A stretch of DNA of 64,000 nucleotides from Escherichia coli (GCF_003018115.1 NZ_CP027457.1); one strand, 5' to 3'; shown: positions 1 through 57,171, numbered from the stretch's first letter. Numbers and translations: made by a program. The notes: generated from the letters alone by a model not told the origin.

Positions 1-989
1 TCGCAGAGCACTTTATTCCGTTCCTCAACGACCATATCAAGCCATTACTGGTAGGCCGCGATGTGGATGCTTTCCTGCCGAATGCCCGTTTCTTCGACAA
101 ATTGCGTATTGACGGCAACTTGCTGCATACCGCCGTGCGCTACGGATTATCACAGGCGCTGCTTGATGCTACCGCGCTGGCAACCGGCCGTCTGAAAACT
201 GAAGTGGTCTGTGATGAATGGCAGTTGCCACGCGTGGCGGAATCCATTCCATTATTTGGTCAGAGCGGCGACGATCGATATATCGCCGTCGATAAGATGA
301 TCCTTAAGGGCATCGACGTGCTGCCCCATGCGCTGATTAATAACGTCGAAGAGAAGCTGGGCTTTAAAGGTGAAAAACTGCGCGAATATGTCCGCTGGTT
401 GTCGGATCGCATTCTAAGCAAGCGCACCAGCGCACGCTACCACCCTACCCTGCACATCGATGTATACGGCACTATCGGTCTGATCTTCGATATGGATCCG
501 CTTCGCTGTGCGCAATACATCGCCAGCCTGGAAAAAGAAGCGCAAGGCCTGCCGCTCTACATTGAAGGGCCGGTCGATGCCGGTAACAAGCCCGACCAAA
601 TTCGCCTGCTGACCGCGATTACCAAAGAGCTGACGCGCCTCGGTTCCGGCGTGAAAATTGTGGCCGATGAATGGTGTAACACCTACCAGGATATTGTTGA
701 TTTCACTGATGCCGCCAGTTGTCACATGGTGCAAATCAAAACCCCGGATCTGGGCAGTATTCACAACATCGTCGATGCGGTTCTTTACTGCAATAGCCAC
801 AGCATGGAAGCGTACCAGGGCGGCACCTGCAATGAAACTGATGTCAGTGCCCGCACCTGTGTCCACGTCGCCCTTGCCGCTCGCCCTATGCGTATGCTGG
901 TAAAACCAGGGATGGGCTTTGACGAAGGCCTCGATATCGTCTTCAACGAAATGAATCGTACTATCGCGCTGTTGCAGGCTAAGGATTAA
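1..989 (+). CDS. 3-methylaspartate ammonia-lyase (methylaspartase), C-terminal ~330 codons; 5' end lies outside the window
   Basis: Frame (phase from base 3) is open from the window edge to the stop at 987-989. Translation carries methylaspartase/enolase-superfamily signatures LPHALINNVEEKLG, HIDVYGTIG, ADEWCNT, HMVQIKTPDLG, GGTCNET, KPGMGxDEG, matching clostridial methylaspartase as I remember it. Confidence 0.85.
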   Translation, partial: AEHFIPFLNDHIKPLLVGRDVDAFLPNARFFDKLRIDGNLLHTAVRYGLSQALLDATALATGRLKTEVVCDEWQLPRVAESIPLFGQSGDDRYIAVDKMILKGIDVLPHALINNVEEKLGFKGEKLREYVRWLSDRILSKRTSARYHPTLHIDVYGTIGLIFDMDPLRCAQYIASLEKEAQGLPLYIEGPVDAGNKPDQIRLLTAITKELTRLGSGVKIVADEWCNTYQDIVDFTDAASCHMVQIKTPDLGSIHNIVDAVLYCNSHSMEAYQGGTCNETDVSARTCVHVALAARPMRMLVKPGMGFDEGLDIVFNEMNRTIALLQAKD

Positions 990-992
990 CAA

Positions 993-2363
993 ATGGCTCG
1001 TTCTTTTAAAGTCTTATCGCCAACGGCAATCCTCGGGTATGGATTCCCGGAAGAGAGCTTCCGCAAAGCGATGGCAGAATCGCCCGATCTGATCGCCGTT
1101 GATGCAGGCTCTTCCGATCCAGGCCCCCACTACCTCGGGGCAGGCAAACCGTTTACCGATCGCGCAGGGGTCAAGCGCGATCTGCGCTATATGATCACCG
1201 CAGGCGTGCAAAATAATATACCGGTGGTGATCGGAACGGCTGGCGGTTCTGGTGCCGCACCACACCTGGAGTGGTGCCGAGAAATAATTCATGAGATTGC
1301 CCTGGAAGAGCAACTCGCGTTCTCCATGGCGTTGATCCCGGCAGACGTTGACAAAGCCATCGTCCACCAGGCGCTGGATAACGGCAAAATCACGGCGCTG
1401 GATTTTGTCCCGCCGTTAACCCACGACGCGATTGACGAAAGTACGTATATCGTTGCGCAAATGGGCATCGAACCCTTCCAGCGGGCGCTGAAAGAAGGCG
1501 CGCAAGTGGTGCTGGGCGGGCGCGCTTACGACCCGGCCTGCTTTGCTGCGCTACCGATCATGCAAGGCTTTGATGAAGGTCTGGCGCTGCATTGTGGGAA
1601 AATCCTTGAATGCGCGGCAATCGCCGCAACGCCCGGCTCAGGCTCTGACTGTGCGATGGGCATCATTGATGACAACGGCTTTACGCTGAAGACATTTAAT
1701 CCGAAGCGTAAATTTACCGAAACGTCAGCAGCTGCACACACACTGTATGAGAAATCCGATCCCTACTTCCTGCCAGGACCTGGCGGCGTGTTGAACCTGA
1801 AAGGCTGCACATTTAAAGCAGTCAATGACGGCGAAGTCTACGTCAGCGGTTCTAAGCATGAAGAAACGCCGTATGCCCTGAAACTGGAAGGTGCACGACG
1901 GGTGGGCTTCCGCTGTCTGACCATCGCCGGAACGCGCGACCCGATTATGATCGCCGGGATCGATAAAATCATCGATGAAGTCAAAACCAGCGTTTCGCGT
2001 AACCTGTCGCTCGACGATGACAGCATTCGCATCAATTTCCACCTGTACGGCAAAAACGGGGTGATGGGAGACCATGAACCGATGCAAACTGCCGGGCATG
2101 AGCTGGGGATTGTCCTTGATGTAGTTGCACCGACCCAGGAAATTGCCAATAGCGTTTGCTCGCTGGTGCGCTCTACCATGCTGCACTACGGCTATGAAAA
2201 CCGCATCGCTACCGCAGGCAATCTGGCGTTCCCGTTCTCCCCTTCTGATATCCAGGGCGGGCCGGTATACGAATTTTCCATATATCACCTGATTGAAGCC
2301 AACGACGCTCTGCGTTTTGATTTCCATATTGAACAGGTGACGCCAGAAGGAGTTCAGGCATGA
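993..2363 (+). CDS. hypothetical protein, 456 aa; tentatively DUF1446/AtuA-like
   Basis: ATG at 993 with AAGGA about 7 nt upstream, starting 4 nt after the methylaspartase stop. Long ORF with normal composition. Family assignment is from memory only and unverified. Confidence 0.6.
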   Translation: MARSFKVLSPTAILGYGFPEESFRKAMAESPDLIAVDAGSSDPGPHYLGAGKPFTDRAGVKRDLRYMITAGVQNNIPVVIGTAGGSGAAPHLEWCREIIHEIALEEQLAFSMALIPADVDKAIVHQALDNGKITALDFVPPLTHDAIDESTYIVAQMGIEPFQRALKEGAQVVLGGRAYDPACFAALPIMQGFDEGLALHCGKILECAAIAATPGSGSDCAMGIIDDNGFTLKTFNPKRKFTETSAAAHTLYEKSDPYFLPGPGGVLNLKGCTFKAVNDGEVYVSGSKHEETPYALKLEGARRVGFRCLTIAGTRDPIMIAGIDKIIDEVKTSVSRNLSLDDDSIRINFHLYGKNGVMGDHEPMQTAGHELGIVLDVVAPTQEIANSVCSLVRSTMLHYGYENRIATAGNLAFPFSPSDIQGGPVYEFSIYHLIEANDALRFDFHIEQVTPEGVQA

Positions 2364-2677
2364 AACAGTCAATTGTCTCACTGGCGCAAGTCATTCGTTC
2401 GAAAAATGCCGGACCTTACGAACTGGTTTTAGATATTTTATTTAAAACGAAAGAAAACTATGAGCGAGTTAAATCATCAGGGCAATTAACCCCAGAACTG
2501 ATTGCGCGCTTATATCATGTTGAACCTGACTTTATTCATCGTATTGTCTGGTTTGATCCTTCTAACGCAGTAAAAATCGTCATGCCACGAGATATTATCT
2601 CCGGGAATGTAGGTGACAATGATGTCTATGGTGCACAGCAACATGCACCTTTATTAAATATGAGTTTCGATTTGTAA
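2360..2677 (+). CDS. small hypothetical protein, 105 aa; tentatively the DUF4387-like partner of the preceding ORF
   Basis: Start overlaps the upstream stop (ATGA, 2360-2363), indicating translational coupling. Family assignment unverified. Confidence 0.55.
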   Translation: MKQSIVSLAQVIRSKNAGPYELVLDILFKTKENYERVKSSGQLTPELIARLYHVEPDFIHRIVWFDPSNAVKIVMPRDIISGNVGDNDVYGAQQHAPLLNMSFDL

Positions 2678-2760
2678 AAATCCGAATACTTTTAGCCAAC
2701 TGACATCCCGTCACTTATTGCAGTTCAACACTTCAGCTATTTGTAAGGTTGTAATAGCAG

Positions 2761-2792
2761 GTAGATGCCTGAATCTCTATTCAGGCATCTAC
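2761..2792. promoter_or_regulatory. perfect palindrome (14-bp arms, 4-nt loop) GTAGATGCCTGAAT-CTCT-ATTCAGGCATCTAC; possible intra-operon attenuator, RNA processing site or protein-binding site
   Basis: Read directly from the sequence, between the small ORF stop (2677) and the transporter start (2838). No clean T-run follows it. Confidence 0.4.
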
Positions 2793-2837
2793 TTCTCCTG
2801 ATTCTGATTTATCGCCGTGCACCTGATGGAGGAAAAA

Positions 2838-4118
2838 ATGAAGAAAATAAGTTTAACCACGATGATTCTTTTGGCGCTGGTACTTGGAATGATTATCGGC
2901 GTAGTGCTCAATAACACTGCTTCACCGGAAACCGCAAAACTCTATGCGCAAGAAATATCGATATTCACGACGATTTTCTTACGACTGATAAAAATGATTA
3001 TCGCTCCGTTAGTGGTCTCTACCCTGGTGGTAGGTATTGCTAAAATGGGCGATGCCAAAGCCCTTGGTCGTATTTTTTCTAAAACACTTTTTTTATTTAT
3101 TTGCGCCTCATTGCTGTCAATTGCCTTAGGCTTGATAACGGTAAATTTCTTCATGCCAGGCACAGGAATTAATTTTGTTGCACACGGTGCCGAAACCACA
3201 GGAGTGGTCGCGTCAGAACCCTTTACGCTAAAAGTATTTATTTCGCATGCTTTCCCCACCAGCATTGTCGATGCCATGGCGCACAATGAAATTTTGCAAA
3301 TCGTGGTGTTCTCAATTTTCCTCGGCTGTAGCCTGACGGCGATTGGCGAGAAAGGCAGCGCCATCGTTCACGCCTTAGATTCGCTGGCACATGCCATGTT
3401 AAAGCTCACTGGCTACGTCATGCTCTTCGCTCCCCTGACCGTATTCGCCGCTATTTCAGCATTGATTGCTGAACGAGGACTGGCCGTTATGGTGAGCGCC
3501 GGGATCTTTATGGGTGAATTTTATTTCACCATGTTATTACTTTGGGTGCTGCTTATCGGTCTGGCCATCGTTTATGTCGGCCCCTGCATCAGACGCCTGA
3601 CCCGCGCCCTTTCGGAACCCGCCCTGCTGGCATTTACCACATCCAGTTCTGAAGCGGCTTTTCCGGGAACGCTTGAAAAACTGGAGCAATTTGGCGTTTC
3701 CCCCAAAATTGCCAGCTTTGTCTTACCCATTGGCTACTCATTTAATCTCGTTGGATCAATGGCCTACTGCTCCTTCGCCACAGTTTTCATCGCCCAGGCC
3801 TGCAATATCCATTTATCCATCGGTGAACAAATCACCATGCTGTTGATCCTGATGTTGACCTCGAAAGGAATGGCTGGCGTACCACGCGCCTCAATGGTGG
3901 TTATCGCCGCCACGCTCAACCAGTTCAATATTCCGGAAGCGGGGCTGATCTTGCTGATGGGCGTTGATCCGTTCCTTGATATGGGGCGTTCCGCGACAAA
4001 CGTCATGAGCAACGCAATGGGCGCTGCGATGGTGAGTCGGTGGGAAGGCGAACATTTCGGCGAGGGCTGTCGGGGTAAAGCATTAAAACCCAATGAATCG
4101 AACGTTGCTCTGCCCTGA
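2838..4118 (+). CDS. dicarboxylate/amino acid:cation symporter (DAACS family, DctA/GltP-like), 426 aa
   Basis: ATG at 2838 preceded by GGAGG. Highly hydrophobic multi-helix protein with DAACS-like segments; the longer ORF from 2817 is probably an upstream extension. Confidence 0.8.
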   Translation: MKKISLTTMILLALVLGMIIGVVLNNTASPETAKLYAQEISIFTTIFLRLIKMIIAPLVVSTLVVGIAKMGDAKALGRIFSKTLFLFICASLLSIALGLITVNFFMPGTGINFVAHGAETTGVVASEPFTLKVFISHAFPTSIVDAMAHNEILQIVVFSIFLGCSLTAIGEKGSAIVHALDSLAHAMLKLTGYVMLFAPLTVFAAISALIAERGLAVMVSAGIFMGEFYFTMLLLWVLLIGLAIVYVGPCIRRLTRALSEPALLAFTTSSSEAAFPGTLEKLEQFGVSPKIASFVLPIGYSFNLVGSMAYCSFATVFIAQACNIHLSIGEQITMLLILMLTSKGMAGVPRASMVVIAATLNQFNIPEAGLILLMGVDPFLDMGRSATNVMSNAMGAAMVSRWEGEHFGEGCRGKALKPNESNVALP

Positions 4119-4225
4119 GGGGGATCTTAAGCAATCAGAAGCCAATGACTACGCATTTTTATAAGCCGGATCATGAAGTTAGACGGCAATTAAGTAACAC
4201 TAACGTTTAAGGTGAAAAGTGAAAT

Positions 4226-5878
4226 ATGTCCAAACCATTTATCTGGCAAGAACCGTTTCTACAAAATAAAGACGGTACAGAATATACATTAATTAGCGAT
4301 CAGCATATTACAGTAACGGAATTAGACGGCGAAGAAGTGATAAAAATCGCTCCTGAAGCATTAACGCTGCTTGCCCGGCAGGCATTTTATGAAGCCTCTT
4401 TTTTCTTACGTTCCGCTCATTTGCAACAGGTCGCCAGCATTCTTAACGATCAGCAGGCCAGTAGTAATGATAAATACGTTGCGTTGCAGTTATTACGTAA
4501 TGCTGAAGTCTCAGCAAAAGGGGTATTACCCAACTGTCAGGATACCGGCACCGCAACTATTGTTGCCAGTAAAGGGCAACAGATATGGACCGGAGGTAAC
4601 GACGCTGAAGCCTTAAGCAAAGGCATTTACAGTACTTTCCAGGAAAATAATCTGCGCTTTTCACAAAATGCGCCGCTGGATATGTATACCGAAGTCAATA
4701 CGCAAACCAATCTCCCGGCGCAGATTGATATCAGCGCTGTCGCTGGTGATGAGTACCATTTTCTCTGTGTTAATAAAGGGGGCGGCTCCGCCAATAAAGC
4801 CGCGCTTTATCAGGAAACCAAATCCTTATTGCAACCAGAAAAACTGACCGCATTTTTAATCGAAAAAATGAAATCGCTGGGCACCGCTGCCTGCCCGCCT
4901 TACCACATCGCCTTTGTCGTCGGAGGGCTTTCAGCCGATCAAACCTTAAAAGTTGCCAAGCTGGCCTCAACGAAATATTACGACAATTTGCCCACCAGCG
5001 GAAACGAGCAGGGACAAGCATTCCGTGATATTGAGCTGGAAAAAGCGTTGCTCGAGGCCAGTCAGCAATTTGGTATTGGTGCACAATTTGGGGGGAAATA
5101 TTTCGCTCATGATATTCGCGTCATGCGTCTGCCGCGTCACGGTGGCTCTTGCCCGATAGCTATGGCGCTCTCCTGTTCTGCCGATCGCAATATCAAAGCA
5201 AAAATTAACAAACACGGTATCTGGCTGGAAAAACTCGAACACAATCCGGGGCAATATATTCCAGCCTCATTGCGGGAAGAAAATCACGCGCAACATGTAC
5301 AACTGGATCTAAACCGTCCGTTGCGTGACGTGATGCTGGATCTCGCCAGATTACCGGTAGGCACCCGCGTGTCGTTAAGTGGTCCCATCGTAGTGGCGCG
5401 CGATATCGCCCACGCCAAAATAAAAGCGCGGCTGGATAGCGGCGAATCGATGCCGGAGTACCTGAAGCATCATATTGTCTATTACGCTGGCCCGGCGAAA
5501 ACACCGGAGAACATGGCCTGCGGTTCACTGGGTCCAACCACGGGCGGTCGAATGGACGGTTATATCGATACCTTCCAGGCGGCTGGCGGCAGTCTGGTGA
5601 TGTTATCGAAAGGTAACCGCAGCCAGCAGGTCACCGATGCCTGTCACAAACATGGCGGCTTCAATCTGGGAAGTATTGGCGGTGCTGCTGCGTTACTGGC
5701 GCAAGAATATGTCAAAAGTCTGCGTTGCCTGGAATATCCGGAGCTGGGTATGGAAGCGGTGTGGATGATGGAAGTGGAAAATCTGCCCGCATTCATCCTG
5801 GTAGATGATAAAGGCAATAATTTCTTTAGTCAGTTTGAGCAGCAACACCGCTGCGCCAGTTGCCCTGCGGGACATTAA
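4226..5878 (+). CDS. fumD: class I (Fe-S) fumarate hydratase paralog, 550 aa; candidate mesaconase (FumD-like)
   Basis: Near full-length similarity to E. coli FumA/FumB as I remember them (WQEPF, GVLPxCQDTGTA, [41 protein letters not shown], GSLGPTTxGRMD). The symbol is from my memory of a described O157:H7 mesaconase and is not verified. Confidence 0.75.
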
Positions 5879-5887
5879 GGAAAATGA

Positions 5888-6490
5888 ATGGAAGCGCGAA
5901 TTTCAACTGAACGGCATGTGCAGCGCCAACAGAAATTGAAGGAACAGGTCGATACGCGCGTCGCGGCGGCGATAGAGAAAAAAGGGATCTTGATTGTTTT
6001 CACCGGCAACGGCAAAGGGAAATCCACTGCCGCGTTTGGTACTGTGACGCGCGCGGTGGGTCATGGCAAAACGGTGGGGGTTGCGCAGTACATCAAGGGG
6101 CAATGGGACAACGGCGAATACAACCTTCTCCAGCCGCTGGGGGTTGAGTTTCATATTATGGGAACCGGTTTTACCTGGGAGACACAGAACCGGCAAGCGG
6201 ATATCGACGCGGCGAAAGAGGTCTGGTCGGAAAGCAAACGGATGCTGGCTGACAAGCGTTACGACTTAGTGGTGCTTGATGAGCTGACCTATATGCTGGC
6301 TTACCATTATCTGGATACCGAAGAAGTGATCGCTTCTCTGCAAAACCGCCCGGCACAACAAAGTGTCATTGTCACCGGACGCGGTTGCCACAGTCAGATA
6401 TTAAAAATGGCAGATACGGTCAGCGAAATCCGCCCCGTCAAACATGCTTTTGATAACGGCATACAGGCCCAGCCGGGTATCGACTGGTAA
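5888..6490 (+). CDS. ATP:cob(I)alamin adenosyltransferase, BtuR/CobA paralog, 200 aa
   Basis: P-loop VFTGNGKGKSTAAFG plus GFTWETQNR and LDELTYM motifs align along the whole length with E. coli BtuR as remembered. RBS AAGG upstream of the ATG at 5888. Confidence 0.85.
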   Translation: MEARISTERHVQRQQKLKEQVDTRVAAAIEKKGILIVFTGNGKGKSTAAFGTVTRAVGHGKTVGVAQYIKGQWDNGEYNLLQPLGVEFHIMGTGFTWETQNRQADIDAAKEVWSESKRMLADKRYDLVVLDELTYMLAYHYLDTEEVIASLQNRPAQQSVIVTGRGCHSQILKMADTVSEIRPVKHAFDNGIQAQPGIDW

Positions 6491-6493
6491 TAA

Positions 6494-6520
6494 CTGCGCC
6501 TGGCATCCTGCCAGGCGCAG
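6494..6520. terminator. hairpin CTGCGCCTGGCA-TCC-TGCCAGGCGCAG between convergent genes
   Basis: Perfect 12-bp inverted repeat lying between the adenosyltransferase stop (6490) and the LysR stop (6524), followed by GTTTTA. Confidence 0.5.
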
Positions 6521-6523
6521 GTT

Positions 6524-7429
6524 TTACATCTCCTGCGGTACGACCGATTTCGCCAGCAACCATTCACGAAATTGCTGCAAGTGCGGTGAGTCAGACTTCT
6601 CTTCCTGCCACGTCATAATAAAACGATTACCGGTACGAATAGGCACATCACAGGGGATCACCATATCGCCACTATCCAAATCATGTTGAATAGCGAACCG
6701 TGGTAACAGCGCCACGCCGAGATTAGAGCGCACGGCGGCAATCAGCATTGAAAGCAAATCGAAACGTGGTCCGTTGTTGACCAGCGGACTGCTAACGCCA
6801 GATAAAGCAAACCACTCTTCCCAGCCAGTAATACGGGTGCTTTGATGCAGAAGTGGTAACTCAGTAAGCAGTTCTGCCACTGACAGTTTTTGATCGGACA
6901 TTGCAAGCAAACTGCCGCTGCATACCGGCAAAATCTCCTCATCAAAGAGATATTCTACTTCCGCCCAGGGCGCGCAAAAATTTTCGCGCATAATGACAGC
7001 ATCGTACTCCCGATTAAGAAAATCGCCGTTATTAGCTAAAGAATGAATATTAACAATAATATCGGGATGTAACTTTGTGAATTCATGTAAATTTGGGATC
7101 AACCAGTGGGTACTAAAAGTAGGATTAACGGCAAGTTCAATAACCTGAACCGTAGGCTGCCAGGTCATAATGGTATTGGTATCGCGTTCCAGCTTATTTA
7201 ATGTTTCTTTTACTATCCCCAGGTAATACTTCCCTGCATCATTAAGAAAAATGCGTTTTTTAGAGTGTGAAAATAACGGAGTACGTAAAAATTCCTCCAG
7301 CGCACTTACTTGTCTGAATACTGCACTTTGGGTTAACGCTAACTCCTCTGCCGCTCTGGTATAACTTTCATGACGTGCGACGACCTCAAAAGTCACCAGC
7401 AGTTCCGTTTTAGGTATTTTCCCTCGCAT
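6524..7429 (-). CDS. LysR-family transcriptional regulator, 301 aa
   Basis: N-terminal HTH region (LTQSAVFRQVSALEEFL) and the usual ~300 aa length. Convergent with the pathway operon. Confidence 0.85.
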   Translation of the reverse strand: MRGKIPKTELLVTFEVVARHESYTRAAEELALTQSAVFRQVSALEEFLRTPLFSHSKKRIFLNDAGKYYLGIVKETLNKLERDTNTIMTWQPTVQVIELAVNPTFSTHWLIPNLHEFTKLHPDIIVNIHSLANNGDFLNREYDAVIMRENFCAPWAEVEYLFDEEILPVCSGSLLAMSDQKLSVAELLTELPLLHQSTRITGWEEWFALSGVSSPLVNNGPRFDLLSMLIAAVRSNLGVALLPRFAIQHDLDSGDMVIPCDVPIRTGNRFIMTWQEEKSDSPHLQQFREWLLAKSVVPQEM

Positions 7430-8194
7430 AATGCCTTCCGTGAAAAAAATAACAATTCAAAAAATTATTTTATAAAAAATAGTAGTGCTAATGAATATCA
7501 TAATTCAAATAAACAAACCAGTCAGCTATATGTCCAACCAGAAAAATAAAGTGACAATAATCCTAAAACAGAAATTTCACCTCAGTTATCCGCATGCAAT
7601 ACTTTAAAGCTATTATTGCAAGAATATTATTCATATACATGAATATACTCTAAATAACTCGAGTTGCAGGAAGGCAACAAATAATGAATTTCCAGAAACT
7701 TACATAAGTCAGTGGCCAGGGTGAGCGAACATCGATGCAGAACATGCAACTTGAAGTATGACAAGTATACAATGATAAATTTAGATACCCTATGTTATAT
7801 ATTATCTATGTCTGGTTAAATTGAATGAGTCATGGCCTTAAAAGACTTCGCAAAAGATAATTTCTCTTTAACAATAAGCCAGATTTACCACTTGTAAAAA
7901 TTGCTATCGCCACATACACTACGCGCGTTTTCTTTCCCTTTTGCTGGCTGCTGACCGGAAAGACAAAATTACCCTCGCAATACAGGGGGTTTTTTAACGT
8001 CTATATTTCAGGACAGCGTTATTCATCATCTTTCAAGGCTTGATAAAGCCTTTCTGCGCAAAGGGATCCAACTTTCCCGCGCCAACAATATTGTTTCATT
8101 ATCTCGTCCATCTGGTGCCAGTGCCCGCGTACTGCTGCCGGACGAACTACCGCTGGAAGAAAAAGCAGTAACACAACTGCTTGATTTTGCAGAA

Positions 8195-9418
8195 GTGAAG
8201 CTACCAGACCACCCAGGTTATGTGCGCCAGACGTGCGCGACGCCAGATTTTCACCCCGGCAATGGCGTCCCCGTTGGCGCGGTGGTGGCCTCAACGCCGG
8301 ATTTAGTCATTCCCGCCGCCATCGGCACCGATATTTCTTGCGGCATGCGGCTGCTAACGACTGGATTAACACTTGAGCAAGCCGAAGCGAATAAAGACGT
8401 CATCACTCAGCGGTTAACGCAAGTGCTACTGCAAAATGAGCGCGATGTTCCGTTATCCGCACAAGCGTTCACTGCGCTTTTTGATGGCGGACCGGCAGAT
8501 TACGTATCGACCTTGCCATCAGCAGGTCTCTGGACACGCACGAATATCCCCCGAATGGTACAAGAGATTGACCGCTGCATTGGGCTTAACGAGCATAACA
8601 GTCATTCGCGTTATGCCCCACCCGCCCTACTGGCAACGGACCGCGCATTACTCCGCGATCCTTGTCTGGGTACGCCAGGTTCAGGTAATCATTTTATTGA
8701 ACTTCAGGTGGTTGATAGCGTGGTCGATCGCCATGTGGCCTGGCAACAAGGGCTGAAAACGGGCGATATCGTGGTGATGATCCACAGTGGATCGCGAGAT
8801 GTCGGCTTTTACGTCGGACGACGCTGGATGGACCGTGCCCGTGCTGAATGGCCCGCCGGGCATAAACACCCACAAAGCGGGTTATATGGTCTGGCTGGTG
8901 GACTGGCGGAGGAATATCTACAAGCGATGGGAATGGCGGCGCGTTACGCATGGTTAAATCGCGTGACCATTGCGGAAATGGTTCGCGTATGTTTTGCCGA
9001 TTTATTTCATCAGGATGATTCACATCTGGTGGTGGATGTGCCGCATAACATCATCCTTCGCGAACATGAAATGAATATTCATCGCAAAGGTGCAACACCG
9101 GCACACGCGGGCGCTCTGGCATTAATCCCCGGTTCAATGGGCGATTATACGTGGCTTGCGGTAGGTTGCGGCAACTCGGAGTGGTTGTGGTCATGCAGTC
9201 ATGGAGCAGGACGCAGCCAGCGTCGGCAGGCGATGCGCTCACGCGCGACTGAAGAGTCAACGCTGCCGTGGCAATGCGTCACATTGCGTGAAGAACGACG
9301 TCTTGAAGAAGCGCCAGCTGCTTATAAAGATATTGCTCCGGTTATCGAAGCCCAACAAGAAGCCGGATTGATTCAGCCTGCGGTCAGATTACGACCGTGG
9401 TTAACGTTTAAGGGGTAA
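8195..9418 (+). CDS. RtcB-family RNA ligase homolog, 407 aa from the first canonical start (GTG at 8195)
   Basis: RtcB motifs DISCGM, GSGNHFIE, HSGSRDVG, HRKGAT, SCSHGAGR. The frame stays open for 80 codons upstream (7955-8194) with no ATG, GTG or TTG, so the true start is uncertain. Confidence 0.8.
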   Translation: MKLPDHPGYVRQTCATPDFHPGNGVPVGAVVASTPDLVIPAAIGTDISCGMRLLTTGLTLEQAEANKDVITQRLTQVLLQNERDVPLSAQAFTALFDGGPADYVSTLPSAGLWTRTNIPRMVQEIDRCIGLNEHNSHSRYAPPALLATDRALLRDPCLGTPGSGNHFIELQVVDSVVDRHVAWQQGLKTGDIVVMIHSGSRDVGFYVGRRWMDRARAEWPAGHKHPQSGLYGLAGGLAEEYLQAMGMAARYAWLNRVTIAEMVRVCFADLFHQDDSHLVVDVPHNIILREHEMNIHRKGATPAHAGALALIPGSMGDYTWLAVGCGNSEWLWSCSHGAGRSQRRQAMRSRATEESTLPWQCVTLREERRLEEAPAAYKDIAPVIEAQQEAGLIQPAVRLRPWLTFKG

Positions 9419-9433
9419 CTGAAATGATAAATG

Positions 9434-9526
9434 GCCTGCGGTTCTCACGCAGGTCAAATCTGGTATCTGCGTAAGCTAACAAACTTGTTTATCAACAATT
9501 TCAGGCCATCCGAAGATGGCCTGAAA
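9434..9526. terminator. two hairpins (CCTGCGGTTCTCACGCAGG and TTCAGGCCATCCGAAGATGGCCTGAA) between convergent rtcB-like and mngB
   Basis: Inverted repeats read directly in the 145-bp gap between convergent 3' ends. Confidence 0.45.
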
Positions 9527-9562
9527 TTGTTGCCCCCCTTAGATACACTTTAAGCGCAATAA

Positions 9563-15125: not shown

Positions 15126-15995
15126 TTATTTCAGAACAGTTTTCAGTGCTTCACCGATATCCGCCAGGCTGCGAACGGTTTTCACGCCTGCGGCTTCCAG
15201 AGCAGCGAATTTCTCATCCGCAGTCCCTTTACCACCGGCAATGATGGCACCCGCGTGGCCCATACGTTTGCCTTTCGGCGCAGTCACACCAGCGATGTAA
15301 CCCACAACTGGCTTGGTAACGTGCTCTTTGATGTACGCAGCCGCTTCTTCTTCAGCGCTACCGCCGATCTCACCGATCATCACGATCGCTTCGGTCTGCG
15401 GATCTTTTTCGAACATTTCGAGAATGTCGATAAAGTTAGAGCCAGGGATCGGGTCACCGCCGATACCGACACAGGTCGACTGACCGAAACCGTAATCTGT
15501 GGTCTGTTTAACCGCTTCATAGGTCAGTGTACCGGAACGGGAAACGATACCCACTTTACCCGGTTTGTGAATGTGACCCGGTTGGATACCAATTTTGCAT
15601 TCACCCGGGGTGATAACGCCCGGGCAGTTCGGGCCGATCATACGAACGCCGGCTTCATCCAGTTTCACTTTCACAGTCAGCATATCCAGCGTCGGGATGC
15701 CTTCAGTGATGGTGATAATCAGTTTGATGCCTGCGTCGATGGCTTCCAGAATGGAGTCTTTGCAGAACGGTGCTGGCACATAGATAACAGAAGCGGTAGC
15801 GCCAGTGGCAGCAACAGCTTCACGCACGGTGTTGAACACCGGCAGGCCGAGGTGGGTAGTACCGCCTTTACCTGGAGTTACACCGCCAACCATTTTGGTG
15901 CCGTAGGCAATGGCCTGTTCAGAGTGGAAAGTCCCCTGGCTACCAGTAAAGCCCTGGCAGATAACCTTGGTGTTTTTATCAATTAAAATGGACAT
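15126..15995 (-). CDS. sucD: succinyl-CoA synthetase alpha subunit, 289 aa
   Basis: Near-exact recall of E. coli SucD ([28 protein letters not shown]...). Confidence 0.95.
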
Positions 15996-17161
15996 TATTT
16001 CCCCTCCACTGCGGCAACAACCTGCTGAGCTGCATCCGTCAGACCTTTTGCTGCAATAATATTCAGGCCGCTGTCAGCCAGTTTCTTCGCGCCGAGTTCG
16101 GCGTTGTTACCTTCCAGACGTACCACGACCGGTACGTTAACACCCACTTCCGCTACCGCGCCGATGATACCGTCAGCGATCAGGTCGCAACGAACGATAC
16201 CGCCGAAGATGTTAACCAGAACGGCTTTCACTTTGTCGTCAGAGAGGATGATTTTGAACGCTTCGGTTACACGTTCTTTGGTTGCGCCGCCGCCAACGTC
16301 AAGGAAGTTAGCTGGTTCGCCGCCGTGCAGTTTAACGATGTCCATCGTACCCATCGCCAGACCTGCGCCGTTAACCATACAACCGATGTTACCGTCCAGC
16401 GCAACGTAGTTCAGTTCCCACTGTGCAGCCTGTGCTTCACGTGGATCTTCCTGCGACTGGTCACGCATTTCGCGCAGATCAGGCTGGCGGAACAGTGCGT
16501 TGCCATCAGCGCCCAGTTTGCCGTCGAGGCAAATCAGATCGCCCTGTTTGGTAATGACCAGCGGGTTGATTTCGATCAGCGCCAGGTCACGCTCCAGGAA
16601 AATGGTCGCCAGGCCCATGAAGATTTTGGTGAACTGCTGAACCAGTTTACCTTCCAGACCCAGTTTGAACGCCAGCTCGCGTCCCTGATACGGCATCGGG
16701 CCTGTCAGCGGATCAAGCGCAACTTTATGGATCAGGTGCGGAGTTTCTTCCGCCACTTTTTCGATTTCCACGCCGCCTTCGGTGGAGGCCATAAAGACCA
16801 CACGACGGGAACTACGGTCTACAACGGCACCGAGATACAGCTCTTTAGCGATATCGGTCGCTGCTTCAACCAGAATCTGGTTAACCGGTTGGCCATTGGC
16901 ATCTGTTTGATACGTTACCAGACGCTTGCCGAGCCAGTTTTCTGCAAAAGCACGGATGTCTTCTTTGCTGTTTACAACTTTCACACCGCCCGCTTTACCG
17001 CGGCCACCAGCGTGAACCTGACATTTCACTACCCACGGACCGGCACCGATTTTTGAAGCGGCTTCTTCTGCTTCGCGCGGAGTAGTACAGGCATAACCCA
17101 CCGGTGCTGGTAAGCCATAGCGGGCAAACAGTTGTTTTGCCTGATATTCATGTAAGTTCAT
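15995..17161 (-). CDS. sucC: succinyl-CoA synthetase beta subunit, 388 aa
   Basis: [19 protein letters not shown]-terminus; 1-nt stop/start overlap with sucD. Confidence 0.95.
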
Positions 17162-17239
17162 GTGTTCTGTCCATCCTTCAGTAATCGTTATCTTTTAAAC
17201 CGTAGACCGAATATTTCGTATCGCTTCCGGGTATTGTCG

Positions 17240-17415
17240 GTCACCCGTAGGCCTGATAAGACGTGTAAGCGTCGCATCTGGCATCGCTTGTCGGATGCGG
17301 CGCGAGCGCCTTATCCGACCTACATCGGTGCTTCCCGTAGGCCTGATAAGACGCGTTAAGCGTCGCATCAGGCTTCAATTGCCGGAGAAAGCAATAATGT
17401 CTTATCCGGTCTACA
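17240..17415. repeat. cluster of REP (repetitive extragenic palindromic) units in the sucB-sucC intergenic region
   Basis: Repeated GCCTGATAAGACG...CGTCGCATC(A/T)GGC and GCCGGATGCGGCG...CCTTATCCG palindromic units. Confidence 0.7.
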
Positions 17416-17436
17416 GTGCAGGTGAAACTTAAACTA

Positions 17437-18654
17437 CTACACGTCCAGCAGCAGACGCGTCGGATCTTCCAGCAACTCTTTGATCGTTACGAGGAAGCCC
17501 ACGGATTCGCGACCATCGATCAGACGGTGATCGTAGGACAGCGCCAGGTACATCATCGGCAGGATCTCAACCTGACCATTCACCGCCATCGGACGATCTT
17601 TGATAGCGTGCATACCCAGAATTGCGCTCTGCGGCGGGTTGATGATAGGCGTAGACATCAGGGAACCGAACACACCACCGTTGGTGATGGTGAAGTTACC
17701 ACCGGTCAGATCTTCAACCGTCAGCTTGCCGTCACGGCCTTTAACTGCCAGCTCTTTGATTTTCTTCTCGATGTCTGCCATGCCGAGGGTATCGACATCA
17801 CGCAGTACCGGCGTCACCAGGCCGCGCGGCGTAGAAACCGCCATGCTGACGTCGAAATAGTTGTGGTAAACCACGTCATCGCCGTCGATAGAAGCATTCA
17901 CTTCCGGGTAACGTTTCAGGGCTTCAACCACCGCTTTCACGTAGAAGGACATAAAGCCCAGACGGATGCCGTGGCGTTTTTCAAACGCTTCACCGTACTG
18001 CTTACGCAGATCCATAATCGGCTTCATGTTGACTTCGTTGAACGTGGTCAGCATGGCGGTGGAGTTTTTCGCTTCCAGCAGACGCTCTGCCACACGCTTA
18101 CGCAGGCGAGTCATCGGGACACGTTTTTCACTACGTGCAGCCAGAGCCGGTTGCGCCGCCGGAGCAGCCGCTGCCGGTGCAGACTCTTTCGCCGGGGATT
18201 TCGCCAGATGTTTTTCCACATCTTCACGGGTCAGACGACCACCCACACCGGTGCCTTTAATGGCGCTGGCGTCGAGGTTATGTTCAGCCAGCAAGCGACG
18301 GATCGCCGGGCTTAACGCATCGTTGTTTTGCTCTTCCAGAGACGCCTGCTGGCGTTGCGCCGGAGTGGACGCTTTCTCTTCAGATTTGGCGCTGGTTTCT
18401 TTACCGGCGCTGTTGCCTTCACGCAGGCGACCAAGGATCTGACGAGACGTTACCGTTGTACCTTCATCTTCCAGAACCGCATCCAGAATGCCGTCTGCTG
18501 ATGCCGGTACTTCCAGTACCACTTTGTCAGTTTCGATTTCTACCAGCACTTCATCACGTACGACTGCGTCGCCGGGTTTTTTATGCCAGGTTGCGACGGT
18601 GGCATCGGCTACGGATTCAGGCAGGTCAGGGACCAGAATATCTACGCTACTCAT
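17437..18654 (-). CDS. sucB: 2-oxoglutarate dehydrogenase E2 (dihydrolipoyl succinyltransferase), 405 aa
   Basis: Lipoyl domain at the N-terminus, Ala/Pro-rich linker, catalytic domain with the DHRLIDG motif. Confidence 0.95.
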
Positions 18655-18668: not shown

Positions 18669-21470
18669 TTATTCGACGTTCAGCGCGTCATTAACCAGAT
18701 CTTGTTGCTGTTTCTGGTGAACGGACATATACCCTACCGCCGGAGAGGCGGAGGCCGGGCGGCCTGCATAACGCAGAGAAGCCCCAAACGGAATCACTTC
18801 ACGGAAATGATGCTGGCTGCAGTACCATGCGCCCTGGTTGAGCGGCTCTTCCTGGCACCAGACAAAATCCTTGACGTGAGCAAACTGCTGCAACACTTCC
18901 TGCATCGCTTTATGCGGGAACGGGTAGAGTTGCTCGATACGCACAATGGCGACATCGTGTTGATTGTTCTTACGACGTTGTTCCAGCAGGTCGTAATAAA
19001 CCTTACCAGAACACATCACTACGCGCTTCACGCCCTTCGGATCAAGCTCGTCGATTTCACCGATGGCTGGCAGGAAGGTGCCGTTCGCCAGTTCTTCGAG
19101 GCTGGAAACCGCCAGCGGATGACGCAGCAGGGATTTCGGCGACATCACGACCAGCGGACGACGCATCCCGCGCAGCGCCTGACGACGCAGCATGTGGTAA
19201 ACCTGTGCCGGGGTAGACGGTACGCACACCTGCATGTTTTGCTCAGCACAAAGTTGCAGATAACGTTCCAGACGCGCGGAGGAGTGCTCCGGCCCCTGCC
19301 CTTCGTAACCGTGCGGCAGCAACATCACCAGACCACACATCCGGCCCCATTTCTGTTCGCCAGAGGAGATGAACTGGTCGATAACCACCTGCGCACCGTT
19401 GGCGAAGTCACCGAACTGAGCTTCCCAGATAGTCAGAGTGCGTGGTTCTGCGGTGGCATAACCGTATTCAAACGCCAGCACTGCTTCTTCAGAAAGTACG
19501 GAGTCCCAGACACGGAACGCGCCCTGGCCGTTATGGATGTGTTGCAGCGGCGTGTAAGTGGAACCGTTAGACTGGTTGTGGATCACCGCGTGGCGGTGGA
19601 AGAACGTACCGCGACCGGAGTCTTCACCCGACAGGCGAACCGGAATGCCTTCATCAACCAGCGTGGCGTAAGCGAGGTTTTCCGCGCCGCCCCAGTCGAA
19701 CAGTTTCTCACCGGCTGCCATTGCCTGGCGATCGCCATAAATCTTGGCAACGCGAGACTGCATTTCAACTGCTTCCGGCACCGTGCTGATGCGTTTAGCC
19801 AGTTCCTGCAGGCGCTTCATCTCAACTTTGTTCGGGTACTCTTCGTCCCATTCGTGGTTGAGGTACGGCGACCAGGTGAAAGAGTGCATGTTCATCGGAC
19901 GCCACTCTGCCACTACGCAATCGCCAGCATCCAGCGCATCGCGGTACAGGTTAACCATCTCGGTGGCATCTTCCAGCGTCGCCACTTTTTCCTGCTCCAG
20001 CTTGTCAGCATAGATTTTGCGCGGCGTCGGATGTTTTTTGATTTTCTGATACATCAGCGGCTGGGTTGCGCTCGGCTCGTCGGCTTCGTTGTGGCCGTGA
20101 CGGCGGTAGCACACCAGGTCGATGAAGACATCACGTTTAAAGGTGTTACGGAAATCGAGCGCCAGACGGGTCACAAAGGCAACGGCTTCCGGATCATCCG
20201 CGTTAACGTGGAAAATCGGTGCCTGAACCATCTTACCGATATCAGTACAGTACGGTGTAGAACGAGCATCCAGCGGATTAGAGGTGGTGAAACCAACCTG
20301 GTTGTTGATAACGATACGTACCGTACCGCCAACTTCATAACCACGCGCTTTCGACATGTTCAGAGTTTCCTGAACCACGCCCTGCCCGGTCACTGCGGCG
20401 TCACCGTGGATGGTGATTGGCAGCACTTTGTTGCTGCTCGGCTCATCAAGTCTGTCCAGACGGGCACGAACAGAACCGATAACTACCGGGCTTACAATCT
20501 CAAGGTGAGACGGGTTAAACGCCAGCGCCAGGTGCACCAGGCCGCCATCGGTCTGGAAGTCAGACGAGAAGCCCATGTGGTATTTCACGTCACCCGTGCC
20601 GAGGTGTTCTTTATGTTTACCGGCAAACTCGTCGAACAAGTCTTGCGGTTTTTTACCCAGCACGTTCACCAGCACGTTCAGACGACCACGGTGCGCCATC
20701 CCGAGAACCACTTCCCGGGTGCCGCTGTTGCCAGCGTGGCGGATCATCTCTTTAAGCATCGGGATTAACGCGTCACCGCCTTCCAGCGAGAAGCGTTTTG
20801 CGCCAGGGAATTTTGCGCCGAGGTAACGTTCAAGGCCTTCAGCGGCGGTCAGTTCGCTTAAGAAGCGTTTTTTCTCTTCGCTATTGAAAGTCGCGCGACC
20901 AGACTCGAAACGCTGTTGGATCCAGCGTTTTTCTTCGGTGCTGGTGATGTGCATATACTCGGCACCAATCGGGCCGCAGTAGGTTTGCTTGAGGGCTTCC
21001 AGCAGCTCGCCGAGTTTCATGGTTTCTTTGCCGCTGGCAAATGAACCGACGTTGAAGGTCTCCTGGAAGTCTGCTTCGGTCAGATCGTGGAAAGACGGAT
21101 CCAGATCGGCCACTTTATCTTGCTGCCACAGTCCCAGCGGATCGAGATTCGCATGCTGGTGACCACGGAAGCGGTATGCGTTAATGAGCTGCAGGACTTT
21201 AACCTGCTTCACATTGGTGTCAGGGTCGGAGATCGTTGAAGAGTAACGTGAAGCGTCTTTCGCCAGGCGGCGGAAATATTCACGCGTTTGAGAGTGGAAT
21301 TGATCCGGTTTGACTCCCGTACCAGGTAACTGCTGGAACGTCGAACGCCAGTTAGCGTCAACCGAGTCAGGATCGGTTAAGAAGTCTTCATAGAGCTGTT
21401 CTATCCAGCTCTGGTTTGCGCCAGAGAGGTAAGAAGAGTCCAACCAGGCTTTCAAAGCGCTGTTCTGCAT
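18669..21470 (-). CDS. sucA: 2-oxoglutarate dehydrogenase E1 component, 933 aa
   Basis: [39 protein letters not shown]-terminus; length and synteny. Confidence 0.95.
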
Positions 21471-21647
21471 CGTGATCCCTTAAGCATCTTTTTTATGCTT
21501 ACTTCGCCGTGGATACTACCACGCACAGTGATGTGCGTGCCGGGGTTCACTTGCGAGCTCTTGTCTACGTAGTGGCTCGCGAAGGAACCTTTAAAAACTG
21601 TCTTAGTGTCAGGGGCAGTTTTTAAAGATTTCCTGCATTTCTTTGTT

Positions 21648-21768
21648 ACGCCTGATGCGCTGCGCTTATCAGGCCTACGGGTAATGACTTGTAGGCCGGA
21701 TAAGGCATTCACGCCGCATCCGGCACTGGTTGCCTGATGCGACGCTTGCGCGTCTTATCAGGCCTACG
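21648..21768. repeat. REP units in the sdhB-sucA intergenic region
   Basis: Palindromic GCCTGATGCG/CGCATCCGGC-type units read directly. Confidence 0.65.
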
Positions 21769-21770
21769 GT

Positions 21771-22487
21771 TTACGCATTACGTTGCAACAACATCGACTT
21801 GATATGACCGATGGCGCGCGTCGGGTTCAGCCCCTTCGGACATACACTGACGCAGTTCATGATGCTGTGACAGCGGAATACGCTGAATGCATCGCTCAAA
21901 CCGTCGAGGCGGCTGTCAGTCTCGGTATCACGGCTATCGATCAGGAAACGATATGCCGCTAACAAGCCTGCCGGGCCGATAAACTTATCGGGATTCCACC
22001 AGAAAGACGGACAAGAGGTTGAACAACATGCGCAGAGAATACATTCATACAGCCCGTCGAGTTTTTCGCGCTGCTCTGGCATCTGTAAATGCTCGCGAGC
22101 TGGCGGATTTTGTCCATTATTCAACAGGTAAGGCTTAATTTTCTCATATTGCGCATAGAATTGTCCCATGTCTACCACCAAATCGCGGATCACCGGTAAA
22201 CCTGGCAGCGGGCGAATCACAATCTTCTTGCCCGGCTGGTTGAGTGCCGAAATCGGGGTAATACAGGCCAGACCATTCTTGCCGTTCATGTTCAGACCGT
22301 CGGAACCGCACACACCTTCACGACAGGAGCGGCGGAACGACAGGCTGGGATCTTTCTCTTTCAGCTGGATAAGCGCATCCAGCAGCATCATGTCGCGACC
22401 TTCTTCCGCTTCCAGGGTGTAATCCTGCATACGCGGAGCATCATCAACATCCGGGTTATAGCGATAAATTGAAAACTCGAGTCTCAT
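21771..22487 (-). CDS. sdhB: succinate dehydrogenase iron-sulfur subunit, 238 aa
   Basis: Cysteine clusters for the 2Fe-2S, 4Fe-4S and 3Fe-4S centres; synteny. Confidence 0.95.
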   Translation of the reverse strand: MRLEFSIYRYNPDVDDAPRMQDYTLEAEEGRDMMLLDALIQLKEKDPSLSFRRSCREGVCGSDGLNMNGKNGLACITPISALNQPGKKIVIRPLPGLPVIRDLVVDMGQFYAQYEKIKPYLLNNGQNPPAREHLQMPEQREKLDGLYECILCACCSTSCPSFWWNPDKFIGPAGLLAAYRFLIDSRDTETDSRLDGLSDAFSVFRCHSIMNCVSVCPKGLNPTRAIGHIKSMLLQRNA

Positions 22488-26991: not shown

Positions 26992-27019
26992 TGGTTGATT
27001 GCTAAGTTGTAAATATTTT

Positions 27020-27050
27020 AACCCGCCGTTCAAATGGCGGGTTAATTTTT
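27020..27050 (+). terminator. Rho-independent terminator of gltA (AACCCGCCGTTCAAATGGCGGGTT + T-run)
   Basis: GC-rich hairpin followed by TTAATTTTT, 30 bp after the gltA stop. Confidence 0.65.
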
Positions 27051-32262: not shown

Positions 32263-32413
32263 CTTGCCATGATGCCCTTTGCAGCCGGAAAGGGCATCTC
32301 TTTCAGAAAATTGCTGATTTTCCCCTTTTCCTTGATTGCTGTTATTTTTTCCTGGCCCGGCTTTCTTTATGCTGTATCGATACACCAAAGAGAAAATAAT
32401 GAGGGAGCAAAGG

Positions 32414-37443: not shown

Positions 37444-39108
<1,665 letters not shown>

Positions 39109-39119
39109 TAGGCCAGCAC

Positions 39120-39235
39120 CGATGCCTGATGCGACGCTTGACGCGTCTTATCAGGCCTACGTATTTCCTGCAATTTATTGAATTTGCACAAATTTGTAGG
39201 CTGGATAAGGCGTTCACGCCGCATCCGGCATCTGG
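39120..39235. repeat. REP units between dtpD and phr
   Basis: GCCTGATGCGACGCTTG...CGTCTTATCAGGCCTAC and GTAGGCTGGATAAGGCG...CGCATCCGGCA palindromes. Confidence 0.65.
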
Positions 39236-39257
39236 GCTCGATTGCCTGACGCGTCTG

Positions 39258-41355: not shown

Positions 41356-41613
41356 TCAATTATATTTTATAATTTGTTGTATTGCTGACTTTATATTGCC
41401 AATGACATCCTCATCATTAAATTCATTTAATATATTTTTTAGAATAGGATGTAGTTTAATATCACCTAAAATACCTGCCGAAATAATCACTTCATCAAAA
41501 ATTATGTTTTTTTGCAGTTCATAAATTATAGCAGTTATAACACGATTATCTTTTCTTTCTGCCAGTCCGCTTATAGCTTCAATTCTGGCACAATCATTCT
41601 TATCTGTCAGCAT
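41356..41613 (-). pseudogene. 85-codon ORF with HEAT-like repeat character; possible remnant of a gene disrupted by the adjacent H-repeat element
   Basis: Starts 13 nt after the H-repeat ORF stop, in a different frame, with no convincing RBS. Repeat-like AISGLAE.../ILGDIKLHPILKNIL pattern. Weak call. Confidence 0.25.
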
Positions 41614-41625
41614 TCCAGGGCAAGA

Positions 41626-42762: not shown

Positions 42763-43420
42763 TTTGTTCTCCTTAATTATGTAAGGAGTATTTGATCATG
42801 TATAAGCAATAAAAAACAGCTTCAGGTAATGAGGAATATCTCAATTTTTAAACATAAAATGCGAATTATTTAGTACAAAAAGTGAACTTCTGATGATCTT
42901 TCCCTGTGATTGCTTCCCGTTTCCCGATACGGCGGCGCGGGGAGTCATAAAGGTAAGAAATTTCCAGCAGTACGGCGTCCTATTGTTCACGGCGGTAATG
43001 CACCAGCCAGTATTGGCTATCGTAGTGATAACCGTGTAACCTGCCGCCGCATCGCGTATCTAATGTTCATTCTTTTCCATAAACCGTCCGTACACATTGT
43101 GATAGTAAAAATACAATACATCTTCGCTGATGCGGTTATTCTGCTGCATGTGGGAAGCGCCGAATACTGCTCCCGGTATGGCCAGTAATTACTATTTAGT
43201 ACGACGTTAGGGGGAGTCACTTAATCTCACAGATACTTCAAGTAACAGATGAAAATCGCTCCTGAAATGAAAAAAGAATTTTTTTTGAATGTGTTTCTGT
43301 CAAATCAAGTGGTTTTTTCGTCGATATGTAGAGTCATATTGTACACAAAATAGTTACGAAACACACCTTGGTAAAATATTTGAATCGACTGTACAGTGGA
43401 TTATTTTGTGTGTATTACAT

Positions 43421-43675
43421 TCAACACTTGCCCATCTTTTTCGCTATTAGTATTGTAAAATTTCCTCCTAACGTCTTCGGTTGTTTTCCCTCGATTTTCC
43501 AACAATTATTGTCATCTGTAATACTATATGGTTTCTGAAATTCTGCTTTTTCTTTCCCGTATACATATTTAATGTAAACATATGATAATTCCAAAGCCAT
43601 TTCACGACTATTTACTAAAATTTCCACAGGATTTTCTTTTCCAAATACTGAGTGTGATATTGTAAACAATATCAT
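43421..43675 (-). CDS. small hypothetical protein, 84 aa; candidate orphan immunity protein
   Basis: ORF directly downstream of a short toxin-like open frame (about 43712-43849, minus strand) in the Rhs-associated AT-rich region. No family recognised. Confidence 0.3.
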   Translation of the reverse strand: MILFTISHSVFGKENPVEILVNSREMALELSYVYIKYVYGKEKAEFQKPYSITDDNNCWKIEGKQPKTLGGNFTILIAKKMGKC

Positions 43676-57163: not shown

Positions 57164-57171
57164 GCGGTTAA

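Follow-up and report, generated by a model that had tools for sequence, protein, structure and literature searches.

The DNA analysed here (the window) is one stretch of 64,000 nt from Escherichia coli, in which open reading frames and annotation placed sucC at 15995-17161 and sucB (odhB) at 17437-18654, both on the minus strand. The start of sucC at 17161 and the stop of sucB at 17437 delimit an intercistronic spacer of 275 nt (17162-17436, minus strand), which holds the sucC ribosome-binding region at its 3' end. A 1.7-kb query over the sucB-sucC region had matches in 5,425 of the 5,426 complete E. coli genomes, with 100% identity to ETEC-type strains such as F9792, and the whole window was collinear with the F9792 genome at 99.0-99.7% identity. 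The K-12 RefSeq annotation of the corresponding stretch contained no repeat_region features. The genes sdhCDAB-sucABCD are transcribed as one mRNA of approximately 10 kb, in which the sucB-sucC spacer is intercistronic within sucABCD; promoters have been described for it at two places only, sdhC and the sdhB-sucA interval, and its internal terminator sits after sdhB (PMC6393394, PMC4161252).

A cluster of REP (repetitive extragenic palindrome) units, which are imperfect palindromes of 30-40 nt, was found to span 17247-17414. It comprised four units of alternating orientation, z2, y, z2, and a degenerate y, for which the consensus alignment gave the orientations -, +, -, and + on the plus strand. 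Tandem Repeats Finder reported a tract at 17244-17415 with a period of 91, 1.9 copies, and 76% matches, and the cluster can be described as two tandem 91-nt repeats, each made up of a y REP and a z2 REP in opposite orientation. The linkers, of 5-6 nt where the units stand head-to-head and of 13 nt where they stand tail-to-tail, were repeated as part of the 91-nt unit. When the spacer was read in the mRNA sense, the sucB stop codon was followed by 22 nt, the degenerate y, z2, y, z2, a decayed REP end, and finally 39 nt, which carry the sucC ribosome-binding region.

The first unit in the mRNA sense (17380-17414, minus strand) was the degenerate y-type REP, which reads GTAGACCGGATAAGACATTATTGCTTTCTCCGGCA and has its GTAG at 17414-17411. 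It was in phase with the 91-nt repeat and its tail, CTTATCCGGTCTAC, had 1 mismatch; its consensus score of 30 was at the background level and its predicted hairpin was weak (-9.8 kcal/mol). The adjacent z2-type REP (17337-17373, minus strand), reading GCCTGATGCGACGCTTAACGCGTCTTATCAGGCCTAC and standing in the iREP orientation in the mRNA, had 0 mismatches to the full Stern-type REP pattern, a consensus score of 60, and a predicted RNA hairpin of -21.5 kcal/mol (z -5.7). It was followed by a y-type REP (17289-17323, minus strand; GTAGGTCGGATAAGGCGCTCGCGCCGCATCCGACA) with a consensus score of 54 and an RNA hairpin (-18.8 kcal/mol) that shows the internal loop typical of REPs, and by another z2-type REP (17247-17283, minus strand; TGCCAGATGCGACGCTTACACGTCTTATCAGGCCTAC) with a consensus score of 58, 0 mismatches in the tail, and an RNA hairpin of -12.8 kcal/mol. 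The series ended with the decayed, iREP-like REP end (17201-17233, minus strand), which lay beyond the stretch covered by the initial annotation. It contained the remnant ...ATTCGGTCTAC and closed with ...CGGTCTAC, scored 20 (background), was 65% identical to the repeat tail, and had no fold of its own (-5.5 kcal/mol, z +0.55). We accepted it as a REP remnant only because of its positional homology with other genera, since it was homologous in position and sequence to the ...GGTCTAC end seen in Citrobacter sp. R56, Buttiauxella, and E. whittamii. The GTAG/CTAC tetranucleotide was present in all four units and in the remnant. The predicted y and z2 hairpins retained an internal loop or a mismatch in the stem, which is needed for the binding of TnpA-REP (PMC3333891).

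The motif search with a REP consensus, which had been suggested as a check in the initial annotation, was run with the REP tail motif CTTATCMGGCCTAC, allowing at most 1 mismatch, and with 100 dinucleotide-preserving shuffles as the null. The tail had 11 matches in the 64-kb window versus 0.00 expected from the shuffles, and these were distributed as 4 in the sucC-sucB spacer, 3 in sucA-sdhB, 2 in dtpD-phr, and 2 in kdpE-pgm. Since all 11 tail matches fell in four spacers, exactly the four spacers named beforehand hold REPs. The whole window was also scanned by alignment to y, z1, and z2 consensus sequences, the types being named as in the literature (PMC3333891). Scores of 60-70 were reached in the four spacers, and the background, including the shuffles, was 32 or lower; of the units in the sucB-sucC cluster, three scored 54-60 and the degenerate fourth scored 30. 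Megablast with queries spanning the four spacers showed the family to be dispersed: the median number of matching places in an E. coli genome ranged from 6 to 33 among the queries and was 6 for the one across the sucB-sucC spacer. The Rfam model naRNA4 (RF02564, gathering score 59.5) matched 17250-17320 on the minus strand with 64.9 bits, the y unit forming its 5' half and the z2 unit its 3' half. The other unit pair (17340-17411) scored 46.3 bits, under the gathering score, and the plus strand of the cluster scored 53 bits. In the alignment, the naRNA4 model consensus reads as a generic y/z2 REP pair; therefore, the match confirms the type of the element and not a discrete sRNA gene.

The statement in the initial annotation that the clusters are REP/BIME elements was thus borne out by the consensus types, the GTAG/CTAC ends, the alternating orientation, the dispersed family, and the naRNA4 match. 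The sucB-sucC cluster is of the BIME-2 type, consisting of y and z2 units that alternate, are joined by short linkers, and occur in tandem copies. The sdh-suc region has been known to contain REP/BIME clusters ever since its first sequencing, and work to characterise the family goes back 40 years. The sucB-sucC cluster is an ordinary element of an already known kind. BIME-2 elements consist of z2 and y units with short linkers in tandem copies, and their copy number varies between strains (PMC3333891). In the Gilson/Bachellier classification, the sucB-sucC cluster shares with BIME-2 the unit types, the orientation, the shortness of the linkers, the tandem units, the variation between strains, and the extragenic site, but differs from the BIME-2 norm in that its outermost units are decayed (PMC3333891).

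The whole cluster was enclosed by a basal stem. In the mRNA sense, its 5' arm (17403-17417, minus strand), which carries the outermost GTAG, begins approximately 19 nt past the sucB stop codon and pairs with the 3' arm (17199-17213, minus strand), which carries the CTAC of the remnant. The stem is 15 nt long, 87% complementary, and used in the minimum-free-energy fold of the spacer. The predicted fold of the spacer RNA was -106 kcal/mol compared to -72.8 kcal/mol for shuffles (z -7.1). The REP hairpins did not have the form of an intrinsic terminator, since no U-tract was found after them and the basal stem was followed by GGUUUAAAAG.

Among the 5,426 complete E. coli genomes, the long (REP) allele at sucB-sucC, defined as at least 80% cover of a 481-nt query across the spacer, was present in 2,021. 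The short allele, counted by a 76-nt junction probe from O157:H7, was present in 3,402 and contained no REP unit. The short-allele spacer is 93 nt long, and a 31-nt hairpin, GTAGACCGAC-GTGGATAGGGT-GTCGGTCTAC, with a fold of -21.5 kcal/mol, stands in place of the whole REP block. K-12, whose spacer at 762,740-763,013 of NC_000913.3 aligned nearly collinearly with that of the window, and the window both carried two 91-nt units, and a BL21 derivative carried three; strain N1420 had a 14-nt deletion in the long allele. In an evenly spaced sample of the ranked genomes, approximately 15% had the two-unit, 21% the three-unit, and 62% the short allele. Since the genome collection is biased to clinical isolates, these figures are database frequencies and not species frequencies. 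The REP cluster at sucB-sucC is a minority allele among sequenced E. coli. The short allele may have arisen by deletion between the GTAGACCG and CGGTCTAC ends. Open reading frames of 29-65 aa in the spacer, which are arginine-rich REP translations of the MRRL...LIRPT type, were considered as genes and rejected because the DNA is missing from 63% of the genomes; gene callers could report ORFs of this type in 17162-17432 as spurious 'hypothetical proteins'.

The spacer was then compared across other genera in a one-genome-per-species scan with a degenerate sucC-start pattern, which yielded at least 120 loci, in a sample that did not include E. albertii, E. fergusonii, or Salmonella enterica subsp. 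enterica. Among the loci listed, the sucB-sucC spacer in Enterobacterales was usually 56-160 nt long. In Enterobacteriaceae, the flanks of the spacer were conserved (ATCACCTGC next to sucB and TTTAAAGATAACGATTAC next to sucC), and the core between them was bounded by GTAG...CTAC and very variable in content. Collapsed hairpin cores of 27-31 nt were present in several Citrobacter, in Enterobacter asburiae, and in the short allele of E. coli. The core consisted of one REP and the ...GGTCTAC remnant in Citrobacter sp. R56 and Buttiauxella, of one z2/y pair in Salmonella enterica subsp. arizonae and Citrobacter youngae, of two units in E. whittamii, K-12, and the window, and of three units in BL21. 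The E. whittamii spacer was 94.2% identical to that of the window, and its coding flanks were 97.0-97.7% identical. Since E. whittamii carries the two-unit allele at these identities, this allele looks old and vertically inherited. If so, the short E. coli allele is most simply explained as a collapse between the outer arms and not as a virgin empty site.

To count the pairs of the basal stem, its arms were anchored on GTAG/CTAC in 15 related sequences. The 11-bp basal stem was kept in 15 of the 15 GTAG-anchored Enterobacteriaceae sequences. At 5 positions both sides of the stem had changed, and two of these positions are not part of the REP consensus. In one metagenome-assembled genome, the stem had CCAG/CTGG instead of GTAG/CTAC. 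Short, 2-unit, and 3-unit alleles alike had the basal stem, as did other genera, with compensatory changes. Furthermore, Pluralibacter gergoviae and Superficieibacter carried unrelated, non-REP hairpins at the same place. The conserved stem and the non-REP hairpins together suggest that a stem-loop 3' of sucB has been selected for. The sample behind the stem covariation is small and its members are related, and homogenisation between REPs or a selected DNA hairpin for transposition could be an alternative source of it. The comparison with other genomes shows that the REP content of this old slot directly 3' of sucB expands and collapses between fixed GTAG...CTAC ends. The REP cluster, a minority allele in sequenced E. 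coli, occupies a hairpin slot that is conserved. Only two points are mildly new, namely that most genomes carry the 'collapsed' allele and that the enclosing stem is conserved from genus to genus, and the discovery value of the sucB-sucC cluster is small.

The locus is a BIME-2-type cluster in a transcribed spacer, and REPs turn over there in a conserved slot; the account as a whole, in which the cluster would serve as an mRNA protector and attenuator, we consider probable. By analogy with other REP loci, its most likely role would be that of a stem-loop block that protects the sucAB RNA and dampens read-through into sucCD. The REP DNA would be non-autonomous repeats handled by the REP-associated tyrosine transposase, TnpA-REP/RAYT (PMC3333891), a link that we infer. 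In the mRNA, the hairpins and the basal stem may form a barrier to 3'-to-5' exonucleases and thereby shield the upstream sucAB part; in addition, they may partly attenuate the read-through into sucCD, probably with the assistance of Rho. Protection and attenuation together would uncouple the levels of the sucAB and sucCD enzyme modules. In full-text searches of the literature, nothing was found on RNA 3' ends within the sucB-sucC spacer. BIMEs within polycistronic mRNAs have been described to stabilise upstream genes (PMC9023263). In a recent preprint, tandem gene pairs that contain REPs tended to show upstream-biased expression, and REP325, the y/z2 array in yjdM-yjdN, stabilised yjdM and attenuated yjdN (bioRxiv 10.64898/2026.03.23.713779). 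According to the same preprint, REPs varied greatly among themselves and did not affect mRNA half-life in general (bioRxiv 10.64898/2026.03.23.713779). Since approximately 63% of the complete E. coli genomes are without REP units, any effect should be either dispensable or small, or should be supplied by the 31-nt hairpin. The polymorphism favours a weak or dispensable effect of the sucB-sucC cluster.

Further known systems resemble the sucB-sucC cluster. The REP325/naRNA4 locus of K-12 (yjdM-yjdN) likewise has a y/z2 tandem array between co-directional operon genes and matches the same Rfam model, but it has 12 hairpins and the sucB-sucC cluster has 4 to 5. The role of REP325 was shown experimentally, whereas the same stabiliser and partial-terminator role is proposed for the sucB-sucC cluster by analogy. 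The intercistronic REPs of malE-malF are reportedly the classical mRNA stabiliser, as described by Newbury et al. in 1987. In malE-malF, a different operon, the REPs lie between cistrons and upstream expression is higher; its likeness to the suc spacer consists in the intercistronic REPs. With the REPIN/RAYT system, in which REP doublets go with a single-copy Y1 transposase, the sucB-sucC cluster shares the inverted pairs, the GTAG/CTAC ends, the mismatch in the stem, and the presence/absence polymorphism; the difference is that mobility at sucB-sucC is deduced from the comparison of alleles only. No RAYT gene was annotated in the genome region matching the 64-kb window, and one RAYT (tnpA-REP) copy has been reported elsewhere in E. 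coli (PMC3333891).

A further reading is that an ancient slot is under selection and that the REP allelic series (none, one REP, 1-3 y/z2 units) tunes sucAB:sucCD between lineages, which we regard as doubtful. If it were true, the ratio of 2-oxoglutarate dehydrogenase (sucAB) to succinyl-CoA synthetase (sucCD) would be tuned without promoter or coding changes. A core TCA-cycle operon with naturally occurring alleles of 0, 2, and 3 units would be a convenient test bed for the debated effect of REPs on the expression of neighbouring genes.

The cluster could also be selfish or neutral repeat DNA, whose REP pairs are multiplied and lost via the RAYT transposase and replication slippage and have no host function here. 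This is favoured by the presence/absence and copy-number polymorphism at sucB-sucC, where 3,402 genomes had no REP unit and the sampled long alleles had 2 or 3, and by the polymorphism of all four clusters in the window; moreover, two of the five REP-like elements in the spacer are decayed. Nevertheless, the slot and the basal stem persist from genus to genus, the compensatory changes reach beyond the REP consensus, and species without REPs, such as Pluralibacter gergoviae and Superficieibacter, still have a hairpin there, so that this explanation is possible but somewhat unlikely. A role at the DNA level seems quite unlikely. The cluster would then be a BIME-2-type site that DNA gyrase binds strongly and cleaves, so that supercoiling is relieved in an operon that is long and heavily transcribed. 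The BIME-2 class reportedly binds gyrase, as Yang and Ames in 1988 and Espeli and Boccard in 1997 are said to have found, and the y/z2 make-up of the cluster fits this class. However, most E. coli lack the REP units, and the conserved stem in species with non-REP hairpins would be left unexplained.

Since the naRNA4 match at 17250-17320 exceeded the gathering score and lay on the transcribed minus strand, a gene for a nucleoid-associated, naRNA4-type small RNA acting with HU in chromosome condensation has to be weighed as well. This is highly improbable, since the model consensus is a y/z2 pair, i.e., a BIME-2 unit, the plus strand also reached 53 bits, and in the 2026 preprint no part in chromosome compaction was found for either REP325 or naRNA4 (bioRxiv 10.64898/2026.03.23.713779). 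It is very unlikely that the spacer is a true operon boundary, at which a sucAB terminator would be followed by an independent sucCD promoter. Such a boundary would agree with an older notation, that of Cunningham and Guest in 1998, which reportedly writes sucAB-sucCD as separate blocks. However, no promoter-like sites were found in 16900-17700, and the single terminator-like match in this range straddled the sucB stop codon, outside the REP units, so that the combination of terminator and independent downstream promoter was not found at sucB-sucC; this agrees with the lack of a U-tract and with the co-transcription of the 10-kb unit, for which two promoters only are named (PMC6393394, PMC4161252). 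The chance that the cluster is a CRISPR array or an integron attC site is practically negligible. Repeated palindromes are present, and nothing more; the units alternate in orientation, the linkers of 5-13 nt are themselves repeated in the 91-nt unit, and neither cas nor intI was annotated in the matching genome region, which agrees with the exclusion of CRISPR repeats in the initial annotation. Integron sites, which it had likewise excluded, are unlikely at sucB-sucC, the sequence being fully explained as REPs and no integrase being annotated in the matching region.

REPs that are 'intergenic within a polycistronic operon' have been treated as a class apart from 3'-terminal REPs (PMC12306157). 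Since the operon is co-transcribed and no promoter-like site was found, the sucB-sucC REPs belong to this class. The initial annotation had placed the four clusters exactly at operon junctions. This was correct for dtpD/phr and kdpE/pgm, which are convergent gene ends, and loosely so for sdhB/sucA, which is a sub-operon junction, but not for sucB/sucC, which is intercistronic. When the gene junctions in the window were tallied from the annotation, REPs were present at 4 of approximately 55, and most junctions therefore have none; by class, REPs were present at 2 of 7 convergent, 2 of 42 tandem, and 0 of 6 divergent junctions. Genome-wide, approximately 60% of the REPs are convergent, 40% tandem, and 1% divergent, and approximately 30% of the convergent spacers carry them (bioRxiv 10.64898/2026.03.23.713779). 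The tally in the window agrees with this distribution. REPs mark the 3' ends of genes, also inside operons, rather than operon boundaries as such.

The sdhB-sucA cluster (21650-21767, minus strand) was an atypical BIME composed of z1 (21650-21678), y (21691-21725), and z2 (21731-21767), and it matched naRNA4 with 82.3 bits at 21694-21764. The GTAG of its z2 REP lies 4 nt past the sdhB stop codon (window 21767-21773). REPs within approximately 15 nt of a stop codon are said to lower the expression of the upstream gene through ribosome stalling, as reportedly described by Liang, Rudd and Deutscher in 2015. SdhB would be a candidate for this near-stop effect, and the stem at sucB, approximately 19 nt past the stop, lies just beyond the approximately 15-nt range.

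The remaining two clusters lay between convergent genes. The dtpD-phr pair (39123-39230) consisted of z2 (39123-39160), a 35-nt L-type linker, and y (39196-39230), and the kdpE-pgm pair (57173-57272) of y (57173-57207), a 37-nt L-type linker, and z1 (57245-57272). The layout of the kdpE-pgm pair was BIME-1-like and its linker carried AAATTCAATAAATTGCA; both linkers (39161-39195 and 57208-57244) held AAATTCAATAAATTGCA, in opposite orientation. These long linkers resemble the L linker of BIME-1 with its IHF site. In comparison with BIME-1, or RIP/RIB (y, L linker with IHF site, z1), kdpE-pgm has the same layout and dtpD-phr has the same but with z2 for z1, whereas the sucB-sucC cluster is without an L linker. 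The Rfam family ES036/CssrF matched 39153-39195, which is essentially the dtpD-phr linker. Since this match falls on a REP linker, what ES036/CssrF represents is probably a BIME linker rather than a stand-alone sRNA.

All four REP clusters in the window were polymorphic across E. coli. Full-length matches (at least 80% of the query) were obtained in 2,708 of the 5,426 genomes for sdhB-sucA (query 21400-21850), in 1,981 for dtpD-phr (query 39020-39340), and in 160 for kdpE-pgm. The sdhB-sucA locus had length variants of approximately -100 and +60 nt in the sampled rows. kdpE and pgm are adjacent in the window (spacer 57162-57335), and only 160 of the 5,426 genomes covered this junction to at least 80%. 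In K-12, ybfP, ybfG, ybfI, potE, speF, and speFL lie between kdpE and pgm, and the kdpE-pgm REP pair is located at a junction of an insertion or deletion of several kb. In some of the sampled genomes, all that is left at this place is the z1 REP, the terminator-like hairpin, and the end of pgm.

The initial annotation had further claimed that the four clusters account for every extended GC-rich palindromic stretch in the window. A hairpin scan of the window (arms of at least 10 bp, GC of at least 0.5) contradicted this, since non-REP palindromes were found at 6487-6527, 27018-27045, 32271-32298, 47928-47959, 48827-48856, 57283-57312, and 61598-61621, and further ones at 9493-9532 and 62341-62366. 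The claim holds only if 'extended' refers to multi-hairpin tracts of at least approximately 100 nt. Most of the non-REP palindromes look like ordinary gene-end hairpins in terminator-like positions. The one at 57283-57312, directly beside the kdpE-pgm REPs, is terminator-like with flanking A and T runs.

The non-REP palindrome at 9493-9532, CAACAATTTCAGGCCATC-CGAA-GATGGCCTGAAATTGTTG, has perfectly matching arms of 18 bp around a 4-nt loop. It is located where the RtcB-family gene and mngB converge, and it may be a bidirectional terminator or a feature of an island junction. Beside mngB, the stretch 1-9500 holds an accessory gene cluster that comprises methylaspartate mutase subunit E, methylaspartate ammonia-lyase, an AtuA-family protein, a DUF4387 protein, a dicarboxylate/amino acid symporter, a class I fumarase, cobO, a LysR regulator, and the RtcB-family protein. 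This cluster looks like a methylaspartate-pathway island for glutamate catabolism. An Rhs element was also observed at 41600-48700 between ybgA and ybfA. It contains an RHS core protein, ybfC, an NTF2-fold immunity protein, and an ISEc1 (ISAs1-like) transposase, and it aligned with the K-12 rhsC only piecewise.
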